A DNA stretch of 5,490 bases from Escherichia phage Lilleput, in sequence record MK629525; one strand, 5' to 3'. A model generated the notes under the pieces. The model saw only the letters and a list, made by a program, of their open reading frames with translations. It had not been told where the DNA came from and searched no databases. Of this stretch, positions 1 through 5,490 are shown in pieces. How positions within the stretch are numbered: the first letter of the stretch is position 1; every line of letters begins with the position of its first letter. Both the position numbers and the translations under genes were made by a program.

Positions 1-1635
1 ATGTCTGTAGAACTCATCAAACCACTCGTCGAAGCCGCTGGCATGTCGACACTCACACAATCTCCAAACCTCCGTATCTGGAAACAGGTAAACACTCGCG
101 TAAAATTACTCGAAGAAATCCTTGCTCACTGGACAAACGGAATCCGTCGCTGCCCTGAAACTCAAGACTTCTACATGAACCCAAACTCTCAACTGGCTAC
201 TACTATTGCCTATCGTGCCCATCAAAAAGGACACAACCCAAAACTCATTCAATACCCTGACACATTTACTCTCGACGACATTATTCGCCGTAAACCAATC
301 CCTCAAACTGCCCCTAACGAACTACGCCTCTCTGATGAAATCGGTGAGGATTACCGCCTTACAGTCATTGCCATTGCTGACGAACTGCAAGAATGTTACG
401 ACGTGCTCGGACAACTTGATATTAATAACACTATAGACCACACCCCTAAAGGTAACGCCCACTGGAGTATGCTTTATGATAAACCTGTTAACACCCATTG
501 GTCACAGCTCGTATCTAAACGACCCCTTAAAGATATCCGCGCCGATTACAACTATGCAAAGGCGAAGGGTATTAAGGATGAATGCTCAAAAATGCTTGAG
601 GAATCTACCATGAAATCACGCCGTGGCTTTACCGTTCAAAGATTGATGAATGCTATGCGCCAAGCCCACACTGATGGCTGGTATGTTGTATTCGACACTC
701 TTACTCTGGCCGATGATCGCATACAGGCTTTCTATGATAATCCCAATGCTCTTCGTGACTACTTCCGTGATATTGGTCGTATGGTGCTTGCTGCCGAGGG
801 TCGCTCTGCTAATGACTCACACTCCGACTGCTATCAGTATTTTTGTGTTCCAGAGTATGGCACACAGCACGGCCGTCTACATTTTCATGCAGTGCACCTT
901 ATGCGGACACTTCCTCTGGGTTCTCGTGACCCTAACTTCGGTAAGCTGGTACGCACTAATCGCCAAATAAACTCCTTGCAAAACACATGGCCCTATGGCT
1001 ATTCTATGCCCATCGCAGTCCGGTACTCCCAAGACGCATTCTCGCGCGCTGGCTGGCTCTGGCCTGTTGACTCAAAGGGTGAACCCCTTAAAGCTACCTC
1101 GTATATGGCTGTCGGCTTCTACGTCGCTAAATACGTTAATAAAAAATCTGATATTGATATGGCCGCAAAAGGCCTAGGGAATAAAGAATGGAACGCATCA
1201 CTCAAGACCAAAATATCTCTCCTACCAACAAAACTATTCAGAATCCGGATGTCCCGCAACTTCGGGATGAAGATGTTATCAATGGCGCACCTGACCGCCG
1301 AAGCATTAATCCAACTGACCCAGCTGGGCTACGACTCGACCCCGTTCAACAACGTCTTGAAGCAGAACGCGAAGAAAGAGCTGAAATCGAGGCTGGCAAA
1401 AGCATCTGTCGCGACCGTTTTGGCGGCGCAACCTGTAACGACCAATCTGCTAAAATTTATGCGCGATTTGACCCGAACAATCGGAGCGTCCAACCTGCAG
1501 AATTTTATCGCTTCAATGACTCAGAAATTAACACTCATGGATACTTCTGATGAAACCAAAAACTACCTTGCTGCTGCAGGAATTACTACTGCTTGCTTAC
1601 GAATTAAATCGAAGTGGACTGCTGGTGGAAAATGA
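1..1635 (+). CDS. A: Replication initiation protein A (rolling-circle HUH endonuclease), 544 aa
   Basis: Long ORF in frame 1. C-terminal two thirds closely resemble phiX174 gpA as recalled. HUH motif HFHAVH at 880-897 and catalytic tyrosine pair in YVAKY (Tyr codons 1120-1122 and 1132-1134). The replication origin lies inside the ORF. If the molecule is circular, GGAGG at 5479-5483 sits 7 nt upstream of the ATG at position 1. The N-terminal ~200 aa are much more divergent. Confidence 0.9.
413..442 (+). other. Origin of viral (+) strand rolling-circle replication; predicted gpA nick between G419 and A420
   Basis: The sequence CAACTTGATATTAATAACACTATAGACCAC matches the conserved 30-nt phiX174-type origin as I recall it, embedded in gene A at the equivalent place. 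Confidence 0.8.
610..1635 (+). CDS. A*: A* protein, in-frame internal initiation product of gene A, 341 aa
   Basis: In-frame ATG at 610 preceded by GAGGA at 596-600. The product begins MKSRRGF, which matches the start of phiX174 A* as recalled, and the length matches too. Sequence alone cannot show whether this start is used. Confidence 0.55.
1188..1550 (+). CDS. B: Internal scaffolding protein B, 120 aa
   Basis: ORF nested inside A in a different frame. ATG at 1188 with AGGG at 1176-1179 upstream. C-terminal half (EAGKS.C..RFGGATC.D.SA.IYARFD ... QPAEFYRF ... GYF) matches phiX174 gpB as recalled. Confidence 0.85.
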
Positions 1636-1714
1636 AGAAATTCAATCTTGCACTAAAGAACTCGAGAGGGTCTTACTTCGCAACCTTTCGCCATCAACTC
1701 GCAATACTCTCTAA
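1550..1714 (+). CDS. K: Protein K, 54 aa, small hydrophobic protein
   Basis: Hand-translated, because it is below the ORF-track length cutoff: [54 protein letters not shown]. The central [16 protein letters not shown] and LSPST blocks match phiX174 K as recalled. The ATG at 1550 shares its A with the TGA stop of B (TGATG). The ORF spans the end of A and the start of C in the third frame. Confidence 0.7.
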
Positions 1715-1892
1715 GGCTGATGCCCTCGACGAGGAAAAATGGCTTAACATGCTGGGCGCTCTTCTTAAGGACTGGTTCCTCTACGAAGAACATTTCGTAC
1801 ATGGCAAACAATCTTTAGTTGACATATTAATCGAACGGGGGTTACTATCCCCCACACAAACAACCCGTAACAACAAAGGAAATACCAAATGA
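1632..1892 (+). CDS. C: Protein C (switch from dsDNA replication to ssDNA synthesis and packaging), 86 aa
   Basis: [23 protein letters not shown]...[13 protein letters not shown] is near-identical to phiX174 gpC as recalled. The ATG at 1632 overlaps the TGA stop of A (ATGA), with GGTGGA at 1624-1629 upstream. The ORF-track start at 1614 is an upstream in-frame extension that I reject. Confidence 0.85.
1819..1848 (+). promoter_or_regulatory. Candidate sigma70 promoter inside gene C, upstream of D (pD-like)
   Basis: TTGACA at 1819-1824, then a 17-18 nt spacer, then TTACTAT at 1842-1848. Position and sequence resemble the phiX174 pD region (TTGACATTTTAAAAGAGCGTGGATTACTAT) as recalled. Confidence 0.45.
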
Positions 1893-2344
1893 ACTCCAAC
1901 GAATCTGCTGTAGCATTTCAAACTGCAATCGCTTCTATCAAAATGATTCAAGCCTCATCCGTCCTCGACCTTACCGAAGACGACTTCGAATTCTTAACTG
2001 GTGACCGTGTCTGGATTGCTACCGATCGTTCTCGCGCTCGCCGTGCTGTGGAGGCCTGCGTTTATGGCACACTGGACTTTGTCGGGTATCCTCGCTTTCC
2101 TGCTCCTGTTGAGTTTATTTCTGCTGTTATCGCTTACTACGTTCATCCGGTCAACATCCAGACCGCTTGCCTTATCATGGAAGGAGCCGAGTTTACTGAG
2201 AACATCGTCAATGGCGTTGAATCCCCAGTTAAGGCTTCCGAACTCTTCGCTTTCGTTCTCCGTGTCCGCGCTGGCTGTAAAGACGTCCTCGAAGGCGCCG
2301 AAGACAACATCCGCGCTAAACTCCGTGCACAAGGAATCATGTAA
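1889..2344 (+). CDS. D: External scaffolding protein D, 151 aa
   Basis: Strong similarity to phiX174 gpD (FQTA.ASIK.IQAS.VLDLTEDDF.FLT...VWIATDRSRARR.VEACVYGTLDFVGYPRFPAPVEFI.AVIAYYVHPVNIQTACLIMEGAEFTEN). The ATG at 1889 overlaps the C stop (ATGA). AAGGA at 1876-1880. Confidence 0.92.
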   Translation: MNSNESAVAFQTAIASIKMIQASSVLDLTEDDFEFLTGDRVWIATDRSRARRAVEACVYGTLDFVGYPRFPAPVEFISAVIAYYVHPVNIQTACLIMEGAEFTENIVNGVESPVKASELFAFVLRVRAGCKDVLEGAEDNIRAKLRAQGIM

Positions 2345-2351
2345 TGGCTAA
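2064..2351 (+). CDS. E: Lysis protein E (single-gene lysis, MraY inhibitor family), 95 aa
   Basis: ORF nested in D, shifted +1 relative to the D frame. ATG at 2064 with GGAGG at 2050-2054 upstream. The N-terminal segment M.HWTL...LAFLLLLSL is hydrophobic and resembles phiX174 E (MVRWTLWDTLAFLLLLSLLL...) as recalled. The track ORF begins at a GTG at 2001, but homology supports the ATG at 2064. Confidence 0.8.
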   Translation: MAHWTLSGILAFLLLLSLFLLLSLTTFIRSTSRPLALSWKEPSLLRTSSMALNPQLRLPNSSLSFSVSALAVKTSSKAPKTTSALNSVHKESCNG

Positions 2352-2430
2352 AGGCAAATCATATCGCCGCGGCTCCGCTGGCAACAAGAAAGGCTCCCGC
2401 CTCTGGTACGTTGGCGGCTCACAATTCTAA
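2344..2430 (+). CDS. J: DNA-binding/packaging protein J, 28 aa, highly basic
   Basis: Hand-translated: MAKGKSYRRGSAGNKKGSRLWYVGGSQF. The C-terminal motif RLWYVGG.QF matches phiX174 and G4 J as recalled. The ATG at 2344 overlaps the D stop (TAATG). AAGGA at 2332-2336. Confidence 0.75.
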   Translation: MAKGKSYRRGSAGNKKGSRLWYVGGSQF

Positions 2431-2438
2431 CCTTCTAT

Positions 2439-2456
2439 GTGGGACCACGGTCCCAC
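2439..2456 (+). terminator. J-F intergenic hairpin, candidate weak intrinsic terminator or mRNA-stabilising stem-loop
   Basis: GTGGGAC (2439-2445) pairs with GTCCCAC (2450-2456) around a 4-nt loop CACG, followed by TCTATTT. Same position as the GC-rich hairpin after J in phiX174. Confidence 0.4.
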
Positions 2457-2474
2457 TCTATTTAAGGATATAAA

Positions 2475-3761
2475 ATGTCTAATGTTCAAACTTCTGCCTC
2501 TCGTGATGCAATTGATTTATCACATCTGGTCTTCAACACTGGCGCTATTGGTCGCCTTAAAGTCGCATCATGGACCCCTGTTATCGCTGGTGATTCTTTC
2601 CAGCTTGACGCTGTTGGTGCTTTACGCTTATCCCCTCTGCGTCGCGGCTTGGCTATTGACTCAACTGTTGATTACTTCACTTTCTACATCCCACACCGTC
2701 ATATCTATGGCGATGCATGGATTCAATTTATGAAAACTGGCGTCGCTGCCACTTCTCTTAACCCTGTAACTACTGGCGAATACGTTGATAGCGCCTCTTA
2801 TCTTGGTGTAATCCCTTCTGCTGATGGCAAGGTTCCCAAGTTCCTGCACCAAGGCTATCTCAATATTTACAATAACTACTTCAAAGCCCCTTGGATGGCT
2901 GACCGTACTGAGGCAAACCCCTCCAACTTAAACGACGACGACCGTCGTCACGGCTTCCGCTGCTGTCACTTAAAAAATATCTGGTCTGCGCCTCTTCCTC
3001 CTCAAACGGAAATTACCCGCGCTATGACTACTGGCGCTACCTCCATTGATATCATGGGTCTTCAAGCTGCCTACGCCCAACTTCACACTGACCAAGAACG
3101 TGACTACTTCATGCAACGTTACCGTGACGTAATCTCTTCGTTCGGTGGCAAAACTCACTATGACGCTGACAACCGTCCTCTTCTGCTTATGCGCTCTAAT
3201 TTCTGGGCCTCTGGCTATGACATTGACGGTACTGACCAAACCTCATTAGGTCAATTCTCTGGTCGTGTCCAACAAACATTCCGCCACTCTGTTCCTCGCT
3301 TCTTCGTACCGGAACACGGCGTTATTATGACTCTTCAACTTGTACGCTTCCCGCCTACCTGCACTGAGGAAACTCACTACCTCGTCGGCAAAGGCGCACT
3401 AAACTATACTGACCTTGCGGGCGACCCTACTCTTTACGCTAACTTACCGCCTCGCGAAATCGAAATGAAAACTCTCTTCCGTGGCGCTGCCGGCTCTTCT
3501 GAAAAAATCAAAATTGCCGAAGGGCAATGGTATCGCTATCATCCTTCTTACGTTGATGGCCAATATCACAACCTTCAAGGCTTCCCGTTCATCCCAAATG
3601 GCCCAACTGGCAACATGGAAAACCGTGTACTGATTGACCATAAAAAATATGACGAATGCTTCCAATCACTTCAGTTAACTCACTGGAATGCTCAGGCTAA
3701 ATACAATGTCACTGTATATCGACATATCCCGACTACACGTGATAGCATCATGACTTCTTAA
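2475..3761 (+). CDS. F: Major capsid protein F, 428 aa
   Basis: Similar along its full length to phiX174 gpF as recalled (MSN.QT...DLSHL ... TPVIAGDSF..DAVGALRLSPLRRGLAIDSTVD.FTFY.PHRH.YG ... QGYLNIYNNYFKAPWM.DRTEANP ... HGFRCCHLKNIW.APLPP.TE ... TTRDSIMTS). AAGGA at 2464-2468. Confidence 0.95.
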   Translation: MSNVQTSASRDAIDLSHLVFNTGAIGRLKVASWTPVIAGDSFQLDAVGALRLSPLRRGLAIDSTVDYFTFYIPHRHIYGDAWIQFMKTGVAATSLNPVTTGEYVDSASYLGVIPSADGKVPKFLHQGYLNIYNNYFKAPWMADRTEANPSNLNDDDRRHGFRCCHLKNIWSAPLPPQTEITRAMTTGATSIDIMGLQAAYAQLHTDQERDYFMQRYRDVISSFGGKTHYDADNRPLLLMRSNFWASGYDIDGTDQTSLGQFSGRVQQTFRHSVPRFFVPEHGVIMTLQLVRFPPTCTEETHYLVGKGALNYTDLAGDPTLYANLPPREIEMKTLFRGAAGSSEKIKIAEGQWYRYHPSYVDGQYHNLQGFPFIPNGPTGNMENRVLIDHKKYDECFQSLQLTHWNAQAKYNVTVYRHIPTTRDSIMTS

Positions 3762-3772
3762 AGCCTATAACG

Positions 3773-3810
3773 TGACAGGGGGAAAAATTTTAATTTTTCG
3801 CCCCCTGTCA
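3773..3810 (+). other. F-G intergenic extended imperfect palindrome; candidate complementary-strand origin / primosome assembly site
   Basis: TGACAGGGGG (3773-3782) pairs with CCCCCTGTCA (3801-3810). They flank an AT-only inner palindrome AAAAATTTTAATTTTT (3783-3798) with a CG bulge at 3799-3800. The region is recognisably related to the phiX174 F-G intergenic sequence GCGGTAAAAATTTTAATTTTTGCCGC as recalled. Confidence 0.5.
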
Positions 3811-3860
3811 GGTTGAACAAGCGCAAGCGCGTTAGCTGCCTAACCATAAGGACTACTCAA

Positions 3861-4385
3861 ATGTTTCAGAACTTTGTTACTAAACACAACTCTCCTCAAT
3901 TTACTACTAATATCACAAAGGCCGTCACTCCCGCCGCGTTGGCTCCTATTATTAATACGCCAACCGTTGCGCGTGACAATCTCTTTGTGAACTTAACTAC
4001 TACCGCCCTAACTTCTGCGGGCGGTATCTCTGCTGTTGTCGCTATCGACAACTCTTCTCATACCGACAATCAGGTTATTTCTATCGCTGCCTCTCTTTCT
4101 ACTACTGGCAGTCTAGTACCTGTTCTTTGTCGGTTTGAATCTGCTACTGTACCAACGGCTATTCCCGCATCTGCGGTTACTTACTATCCGTTGGACTTTA
4201 CATCATCTGCTACCGCTCTGTCCGTCAAGGACTGTGCTACTGTCTCTACTATCTCTCGCTCTGGCAATCCTGTTTATGTAGGTATTGCCCTTATTGCGAA
4301 ATCATTTGCCGCTGATACTGTATACGGCTCTATCTCAATTAATCAGGTTGACCAAGAAATCACAACTCTGCAACCTCTCAAATAA
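3861..4385 (+). CDS. G: Major spike protein G, 174 aa
   Basis: MFQNF..KHNS ... CRFES..VPT ... VKDC.T ... NPVYVG ... NQV..EI..LQPLK matches phiX174 gpG as recalled. ATG at 3861 with AAGGA at 3848-3852 upstream. The track ORF starts at a TTG at 3813 inside the intergenic palindrome, which I reject. Confidence 0.9.
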   Translation: MFQNFVTKHNSPQFTTNITKAVTPAALAPIINTPTVARDNLFVNLTTTALTSAGGISAVVAIDNSSHTDNQVISIAASLSTTGSLVPVLCRFESATVPTAIPASAVTYYPLDFTSSATALSVKDCATVSTISRSGNPVYVGIALIAKSFAADTVYGSISINQVDQEITTLQPLK

Positions 4386-4394
4386 GGAATCTCT

Positions 4395-5432
4395 ATGTTT
4401 GGTGCAATCGCTGGCGGCATCGCCTCTACTCTTGCTGGCGGTCTAATGTCCAAACTGATGGGCGGCAATAAACAAGCCGCCCCCTCAACTCCCGGACAAG
4501 GCCTCTTCGCTACCCCTGAAACTACTATCTCTGCTGACAATGCAGGTATTCAATCTGTTATGCAGGGACCTAACCCGCCTGGCCCTGACCAAGCGGCTCC
4601 CACATTTACTGAATCTGCCGTCTCCTCACTTAAGGATGCTGGCAAAGGACTTCTCGATGGTACTCTACAAGCTGGCGGCTCTGCTGTTCAACAGGCTCTT
4701 CTTAACAAAATTGGCCTCGGTGGCAAATCTGCTGCTGATAAAGGCAAGGATACTAAAGATTACCTTGCTTCTGCGTTCCCCGAGCTCAACCCGTGGGAAC
4801 GCGCTGGCGCTGGTGCTTCCTCTGCTGGTATGGTTGACGCTGGTTTTGAAAACCAAAAGCAACTAACCAAAATGCAACTTGACAACCAAGTCAAAATCGC
4901 TAAGATGCAAAACGACACTCAAAAGGATATCGCTGGTATCCAGTCTGCCACATCACGCATGAATACTAAGGACTCTGTATATGCTCAAAACGAAATGCTC
5001 CAATACAACCAAAAGGAATCTATGTCACGTGTTGGCGCTATTCTCGAAAACACAAGCCTCACCAAACAACAACAAACTTCTGAAATTATGCGCCAAATGC
5101 TTACTCAGGCTCAAACCTCAGGACAACACTTTACTAACGCTCAAATCCAAGAACTTACTCGAAAAGTCGGTGCTGATATTGATGCTGTTCGTGCTAACAC
5201 TCAACGCACCAATGTAGAAACTGACCGCTCTAAACAGGAAGTCCAAAACTCACGTTACGCATCATCACAGGTCGGTAAAACCGCCAAGGACGTATCAAAT
5301 GTCATTAGTGACGCATCTTCTGGTATTGTTGATTATTTTCGTGGCGTTGATAAAGCTGTGGCTGACACTTGGAACAATTATTGGAAAGATGGTAAAGCCG
5401 ACGGAGTAGGCTCCAACATGTCTCGCAAATAG
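4395..5432 (+). CDS. H: DNA pilot / minor spike protein H, 345 aa
   Basis: N-terminus [21 protein letters not shown] and long blocks ([51 protein letters not shown] ... [16 protein letters not shown] ... [24 protein letters not shown]) match phiX174 gpH as recalled. AAGGA at 4384-4388. Confidence 0.92.
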
Positions 5433-5433
5433 C

Positions 5434-5463
5434 TTGACAATCACATCATAAATCCTATCTAAT
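5434..5463 (+). promoter_or_regulatory. Candidate sigma70 promoter upstream of gene A (pA-like)
   Basis: Perfect -35 TTGACA at 5434-5439, immediately after the H stop. Best -10 candidate is TCTAAT at 5458-5463 with an 18-nt spacer (TATCTA at 5456-5461 with 16 nt is an alternative). phiX174 also has TTGACA just after H. Confidence 0.4.
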
Positions 5464-5485
5464 AGCCTCCATTAACACGGAGGCT
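5464..5485 (+). promoter_or_regulatory. H-A intergenic hairpin whose 3' arm contains the putative gene A Shine-Dalgarno (GGAGG)
   Basis: AGCCTCC (5464-5470) pairs with GGAGGCT (5479-5485) around an 8-nt loop. phiX174 has the analogous GCCTCC...GGAGGC hairpin before the A start, as recalled. Confidence 0.5.
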
Positions 5486-5490
5486 TTAAC

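Follow-up and report, generated by a model that had tools for sequence, protein, structure and literature searches.

The window analyzed here is the whole stretch of 5490 nucleotides (nt) deposited for Escherichia phage Lilleput (sequence record MK629525), with a G+C content of 47.05%; Olsen et al. (2020) list this phage with 5490 bp and 47.0% GC (PMC7552041). It contains the genes of a phiX174-type microvirus in the order A(A*,B,K)-C-D(E)-J-F-G-H, each of them starting with ATG and free of internal stops, as well as a viral-strand origin inside gene A and an H-A intergenic region that reaches the last base. We are highly confident that it is exactly one unit of a circular Bullavirinae (phiX174/G4-type) coliphage genome, which belongs to the SECphi17/Lilledu/lillemer/MG1 lineage and was linearised at the start codon of gene A. 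The genes, with protein lengths in amino acid residues (aa), and the elements that bear on this interpretation are:

1-1635, + strand, gene A, 544 aa, rolling-circle replication initiator (Pfam Phage_GPA, E-value 2.2e-60)
412-441, + strand, viral-strand origin, exact match to the 30-nt ori of phiX174, CAACTTGATATTAATAACACTATAGACCAC
610-1635, + strand, gene A*, 341 aa, in-frame internal start (ATG 610) within A
1188-1550, + strand, gene B, 120 aa, internal scaffolding protein, overlaps A in another frame (Pfam Phage_B, E-value 9.3e-43)
1550-1714, + strand, gene K, 54 aa, overlaps A and C (Pfam Protein_K, E-value 1.3e-16; phrog_1713, E-value 4.3e-27)
1632-1892, + strand, gene C, 86 aa, DNA maturation, ATGA overlap with the stop of A (Pfam Phage_C, E-value 5.8e-39)
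1889-2344, + strand, gene D, 151 aa, external scaffolding protein (Pfam gpD, E-value 1.6e-81)
2064-2351, + strand, gene E, 95 aa, lysis protein, +1 frame inside D (phrog_1472, E-value 2.9e-19)
2344-2430, + strand, gene J, 28 aa, DNA-binding core protein (Pfam Microvir_J, E-value 9.3e-09; phrog_3780)
2475-3761, + strand, gene F, 428 aa, major capsid protein (Pfam Phage_F, E-value 2.8e-151)
3861-4385, + strand, gene G, 174 aa, major spike protein (Pfam Phage_G, E-value 9.2e-29; phrog_1483, E-value 2.6e-52)
4395-5432, + strand, gene H, 345 aa, pilot/minor spike protein (Pfam Microvir_H, E-value 2.7e-141)
5433-5490, + strand, H-A intergenic region, 58 nt, continuous with position 1
5434-5439 and 5458-5463, + strand, H-A promoter candidate: -35 TTGACA, candidate -10 TCTAAT, 18-nt spacer
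5464-5470 and 5479-5485, + strand, H-A hairpin AGCCTCC / GGAGGCT (RNA fold, -12.6 kcal/mol)

All 11 open reading frames (ORFs) are intact and lie on the + strand, in agreement with the initial annotation, which had described each phiX174-type gene once and in canonical order, and their assignment to families is supported by Pfam and PHROGs. Pfam recognises the products of A, B, K, C, D, J, F, G and H with E-values between 9e-09 and 3e-151. The arrangement is compact, with ATGA overlaps at A/C and C/D, TAATG at D/J and TGATG at B/K. The A protein (gpA) shows 83% amino acid identity to gpA of G4 and ID2, and it is annotated as gpA at 1-1635 in the related phages Lilledu and MG1. The start ATG of A* and its length of 341 aa are the same as in the annotated A* of ID2, G4 and phiX174, with identities of 83-88%, and gene B is intact in all the closest relatives.

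The window starts exactly at gene A, base 1 being the A of its ATG. In the circular context an in-frame TAA precedes this ATG by 15 nt and the interval contains no start codon, therefore the ATG at base 1 is the first possible start of gene A. The last 12 bases are GGAGGCTTTAAC and, when both ends are joined (...GGAGGCTTTAAC|ATGTCTGT... at 5490|1), they place a Shine-Dalgarno, GGAGG at 5479-5483, 7 nt before this ATG. The initial annotation had proposed this disposition by likeness to the arrangement GGAGGCTTTTTT-ATG of phiX174, which agrees with the phiX174 record, and had also given the H-A spacer as 58 nt, as found here from the H stop codon that ends at 5432. Records of Lilledu, MG1, Lilleto and Lilleen also open at the gene A ATG, which reflects how these genomes are deposited and not a biological end; gpA would be expected to nick between G418 and A419, so that the biological break point would lie in gene A and position 5490/1 be a mere convention.

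Relatives were searched by megablast against 50,697 phage records and compared in global alignments after rotating the genomes to the start of A. Megablast identified Lilledu (MK791318, 5484 nt, 97.2%), lillemer (MN850599, 5492 nt, 97.1%), MG1 (OR702609, 5490 nt, 96.4%), Lilleto (MK629529, 5494 nt, 96.3%) and Lilleen (MK629526, 5342 nt, 97.6% over 97% of the window), followed by SECphi17 (LT960607, 94%) and by ID2 and G4-type phages (~80%). Global identities were 97.1% with Lilledu and lillemer, 96.4% with MG1, 93.8% with SECphi17, 79.1% with PJNS002 (PQ479935), 73.2% with ID2, 71.3% with G4 and 63.7% with phiX174. No indels separate the window from MG1 over the full length, and only a 3-nt and a 4-nt indel, at 2437 and 2456 in the J-F spacer, separate it from Lilledu and SECphi17. 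The comparison of length and genes by BLASTN and whole-genome alignment that the initial annotation had proposed thus shows an end-to-end match with complete G4-like phage genomes at 96-97% identity, which makes chance an unrealistic explanation.

Continuity across the ends was studied by joining window positions 5191-5490 to 1-300 (600 nt) and aligning this construct to records opened elsewhere. In lillemer, whose record opens in gene F, 600 of the 600 nt aligned without gaps and with 97.5% identity; the alignment with SECphi17 covered 598 nt, also gapless, and that with PJNS002 had one gap. The 58-nt spacer together with the first 12 nt of A is base-for-base identical in lillemer, and one spacer base differs in SECphi17. 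Furthermore, an exact look-up of the D protein (gpD) gave eight places among the matches listed (10 contigs read), one of which is the MG1 record. The other seven are contigs (ENA metagenome, Logan and NCBI) that all differ in their opening position and have exact terminal overlaps of 119, 55, 55, 30, 30, 30 and 30 nt, which close them into circles of 5483-5484 nt, and the H to A junction is continuous in all of them; among the seven is the record of SECphi17, whose reads may also be the origin of one Logan contig. The same look-up with gpA, gpH and gpC returned no contig, gpD alone being successful. With the junction continuous in relatives and a unit length matching that of complete genomes, the window can be read as a whole circular microvirus genome opened at gene A, as the initial annotation had suggested. 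SECphi17 was deposited as a complete genome of 5538 nt; its exact 55-nt terminal duplication gives a true circle of 5483 nt.

Some variation among relatives could suggest that the window is slightly incomplete or over-long, with bases lost or duplicated at 5490/1 in assembly or trimming: sibling lengths range between 5483 and 5494 nt, and untrimmed contigs of the lineage keep terminal duplications of 30-119 nt, such as the 55-nt overlap in SECphi17. This is very unlikely, as the junction is gapless to lillemer with an identical spacer and start of A, no indels are found against MG1, the window itself has no suffix-prefix overlap, and the length differences from the 5483-nt Lilledu and SECphi17 sit in the J-F spacer at 2437/2456, far from the junction. 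In a repeat search the window showed neither terminal nor large internal repeats; apart from the F-G hairpin described below, the matches were short and chance-like. The J-F spacer is also relevant to an assembly chimera of two co-occurring microviruses, which would not be a natural genome. Local identity dips to 90-91% with Lilledu at 2251-2500 and 4001-4250 and to 90% with MG1 at 2751-3000, and the J-F hairpin is G4-like in the window and of the phiX174/ID2 type in Lilledu. However, the dips differ by sibling and for every region some other isolate reaches 95% identity or more, as natural recombination or polymorphism in a population would produce; in addition, the 11 ORFs are intact, and MG1 and lillemer (5490-5492 nt) lack the J-F indels relative to the window that the 5483-nt Lilledu and SECphi17 have. 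We therefore give a chimera next to no chance.

Some Microviridae outside Bullavirinae exist as prophages, and the window could accordingly be a segment of a larger replicon, an integrated or plasmid-borne microvirus rather than a free 5.5-kb circle. Embedding of this kind, which the initial annotation had named as the case that would overturn its interpretation, was looked for with negative results: megablast found no match to the window in 5,426 complete E. coli genomes, and in the plasmid collection only 5386-bp, phiX174-sized records matched, with ~76% identity. The junction sequence had no exact match in IMG/VR, in JGI metagenomes or in GTDB genomes (185,579 species representatives), scans that require perfect identity and are thus uninformative. 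Related contigs all close on themselves as circles of ~5.48 kb and carry no other sequence, the siblings were isolated as plaque formers (PMC7552041), and neither an integrase nor any other extra gene is present in the window. The larger replicon is therefore largely refuted and we regard it as extremely improbable. Six of the 5386-bp "plasmids" (from Vibrio, Cellulomonas, Edwardsiella and E. coli) have the length of phiX174 and are most likely deposits of the phiX174 sequencing spike-in.

Several observations weigh against reading the window as one closed genome unit. The support for the junction comes from relatives at 84-98% identity and not from identical sequences, and the end closure of this molecule is deduced from those relatives and not from its own reads. 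Moreover, a consensus promoter/terminator scan called neither the H-A promoter nor the H-A hairpin, and no more than three T's come after the hairpin, which makes a role as terminator weaker than in phiX174.

Lilleput was described among five near-identical microviruses, with Lilleen, Lilleto, Lilledu and lillemer, from Danish wastewater on E. coli K-12 MG1655 (PMC7552041). Olsen et al. (2020) reported 92.6-94.5% similarity to SECphi17 and 59-68% (BLAST) to recognised Gequatrovirus species, and assigned the phages to Gequatrovirus on synteny, with a species criterion of 95% (PMC7552041). In NCBI the lineage is unclassified within Bullavirinae or Microviridae. Genome-wide identity above 95% places the window in one species with Lilledu, lillemer and MG1 (97.1, 97.1 and 96.4%). 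The features of Bullavirinae are present: 11 genes on one strand with overlapping B, K and E, whose coordinates parallel those of the ID2, G4 and phiX174 records; genes D and G, both of which are markers against gokushoviruses; a length of 5490 nt, within the ~5.4-6.1 kb range, with circularity shown for contigs of the lineage; and gpA with the conserved 30-nt origin inside gene A. At the genus level, for which ~70% nucleotide similarity across the genome is commonly used, the 71-73% global identity makes a Gequatrovirus placement of the lineage borderline on nucleotide comparison.

The closest siblings (Lilledu, lillemer, MG1, Lilleto and Lilleen) share the gene order and the H-A spacer with the window and show ~3% point differences, although the J-F spacer of Lilledu is 7 nt shorter and has a different hairpin. 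SECphi17 and PJNS002 are at a greater distance, with the same gene order and a leucine at position 21 of E as in the window; PJNS002 infects Salmonella, its E has 91 aa and carries Pro29, and its G and H are divergent. The closest recognised genus is that of G4 and ID2 (Gequatrovirus talmos), whose A, A*, B, K, C, D, E, J and H are nearer to those of the window than the phiX174 ones are. However, its G is ~42% identical to the window G, and its E has a Pro21 that the window E lacks. In contrast, F of the window is nearer to phiX174 (73.6%) than to G4 (66.8%). The phage phiX174 shows the same 11-gene plan, an identical 30-nt origin, a Shine-Dalgarno with GGAGGC and 7 nt to the ATG within a hairpin, and a homologous F-G hairpin, and differs in its genome of 5386 nt, J of 38 aa, A of 513 aa and H-A spacer of 63 nt. 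These comparisons suggest a phiX-like F/F-G module in an otherwise G4-like genome.

Two further hairpins lie in the J-F and F-G spacers:

2439-2456, + strand, J-F hairpin GTGGGACC-ACGG-TCCCAC followed by a T-rich tail, terminator-like, G4 type (terminator scan)
3769-3814, + strand, F-G long hairpin, phiX174 type (inverted repeat; DNA fold, -20.6 kcal/mol)

The J-F spacer of the window (2431-2474) carries the hairpin GTGGGACCACGGTCCCAC, nearly identical to that of G4, while Lilledu and ID2 have GGGGCTTCGGCCCC, the phiX174/ID2 type, and the 3-nt and 4-nt J-F gaps of SECphi17 are the same as those of Lilledu. A swap of this hairpin cassette likely accounts for the two length classes of the lineage, 5490-5492 and 5483-5484 nt. 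The F-G spacer (3762-3860, 99 nt) contains a hairpin identical to that of ID2, and differences between the two 99-nt spacers are confined to the vicinity of their 3' ends. The hairpin can be aligned to phiX174 nt 2301-2355, a stretch that we take to be the PriA (n') primosome assembly site. This spacer is unrelated to the 136-nt region of G4, and the G4-type complementary-strand origin region is not present in the window F-G spacer, which is of the phiX174 type instead; that origin is presumably a feature of G4 itself and no formal genus criterion.

All relatives share the 30-nt origin with the window letter for letter; in phiX174 it lies at 4299, and the rep_origin annotated there at 4306 corresponds to the 8th base of the 30-mer. 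The architecture of the H-A spacer is the same in the window, G4, ID2, PJNS002 and phiX174. Its promoter was placed by aligning the spacer to the stretch of phiX174 that precedes the annotated transcription start at 3962; this start falls in the loop of the phiX174 hairpin. The H-A hairpin of the window is GC-rich and has 7 bp, and the GGAGG of gene A (5479-5483) sits in its 3' arm. No known RNA family was found in the window with Rfam at an E-value of up to 1.

The single-stranded DNA topology, the function of promoters and terminators and the priming mode of this genome are proposed by homology with phiX174. The genes are coded on the + strand shown, the same strand that phiX174-type phages package. 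Enzymes of the host would convert it to the double-stranded replicative form, probably primed at the phiX-type F-G hairpin, and gpA would then nick the 30-nt origin between G418/A419 and drive rolling-circle replication. Transcription would run clockwise, with the H-A spacer holding one of the promoters. Since the Shine-Dalgarno lies in the 3' arm of the H-A hairpin, transcripts that read through from H could fold it away and so sequester it, whereas transcripts that begin at the A promoter, in or close to the hairpin, would miss its 5' arm and leave the Shine-Dalgarno exposed.

Of all the genes in the window, G is by far the most divergent, with 37-42% amino acid identity to phiX174, G4 and ID2; the near-absence of similarity in this gene was already noted by Olsen et al. 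(2020; PMC7552041). Its region 4001-4250 is the most variable among close siblings, with 90-91% nucleotide identity to Lilledu and lillemer. The variability of G fits a diversifying pressure on host recognition. In the GenBank records of Lilledu, lillemer, MG1 and PJNS002 only 5-7 coding sequences are annotated, and A*, B, K, E and J are left out; despite this sparse annotation all 11 ORFs are intact in the four genomes, with the exception of F in lillemer. The lillemer F is annotated as two fragments because a 2-nt insertion relative to all siblings, at the equivalent of window position 3317, breaks the gene; as this phage was isolated as a viable plaque former, the insertion is probably a sequencing or assembly error. 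H of Lilledu is annotated from an internal ATG (record 4439-5425), with a 5' end 51 nt shorter than that of the 345-aa H of the window.

The lysis gene E departs from a reported requirement of its family. It is a small ORF in the +1 frame of D that encodes an N-terminal hydrophobic helix homologous to that of E proteins. Its product matches phrog_1472 (lysis) over profile positions 1-91 of 91 and, in the structure database, the E proteins of PDB 8G01_B (E-value 3.7e-09) and 8G02_B (2.3e-07), while Pfam gave no hit on E. Residues 1-18 are nearly identical to those of G4 E. Substitution P21A abolishes lysis by the E protein of ID52 (PMC11126076), and the same loss in phiX174 E is attributed to Witte 1997 as cited in that article (PMC11126076). 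The solved structures 8G01 and 8G02 both carry Pro21. In the window, however, codon 21 is CTG (2124-2126), which encodes leucine.

To survey this position, the E frame was read directly from loci collected through gene D; a protein-database search with E gave only two G4 proteins because E is rarely called. Leu21 and Phe19 are present in 14 of the 14 loci of the lineage (12 distinct records, among them PJNS002, at 79% genome identity), with the transmembrane sequence LLLLSLFLLLSLTTFI(R/P), FLLLSLTTFIR in the window. In the other sampled Bullavirinae, Pro21 was found in all 20 loci, within L(L/F)LPSLLI(M/T)FIP; these correspond to phiX174, G4, ID2 and 17 IMG/VR genomes (5.5-6.26 kb), some of which may be the same phages as the references. 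The window helix has no proline through residue 28, and position 29 (codon 2148-2150) is arginine in all members of the lineage except PJNS002, which has proline. In addition, the window E carries His3 and Phe19 (codon 19 at 2118-2120), and its D has a serine at the matching overlap position. The changes R3H and L19F, the second of which reads as A79S in the overlapping D, appear as slyD-bypass changes when phiX174 adapts to hosts with slyD deleted (PMC3324380).

Changes that are synonymous in D were counted over the overlap. Between the window and PJNS002 they affect 4 of the 30 codons over E residues 1-30 and 41 of 101 elsewhere (Fisher p = 0.008); among close relatives, in comparisons that are not independent, they amount to 1/150 over the E helix and 68/604 elsewhere. 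The conserved Pro-less helix together with the depletion of D-synonymous change indicates that E looks functional and not decayed, and the helix appears to be maintained by selection. Furthermore, the five Danish isolates plaque on K-12 (PMC7552041), so lysis evidently works. That E of this lineage is a natural functional variant which kills without Pro21 is, on these sequence patterns, a tentative proposal that we hold to be possible but rather doubtful.

Regarding completeness and organisation of the genome, nothing new is added to a lineage published in 2020 and already known. Downstream analyses may treat positions 5490 and 1 as adjacent, with no missing genes to seek, and the 11-gene parse is fuller than the GenBank annotation of the nearest relatives (5-7 genes). 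At the edge of Gequatrovirus and with F and F-G modules that appear phiX-like, the lineage would illustrate modular exchange among Bullavirinae. MraY is the target of E, which serves as a model protein antibiotic, and the best-known sequence requirement of E would be broken by a natural variant such as the one tentatively proposed here; if functional, this variant may rely on a different MraY geometry, on independence from SlyD or, least likely, on another target.

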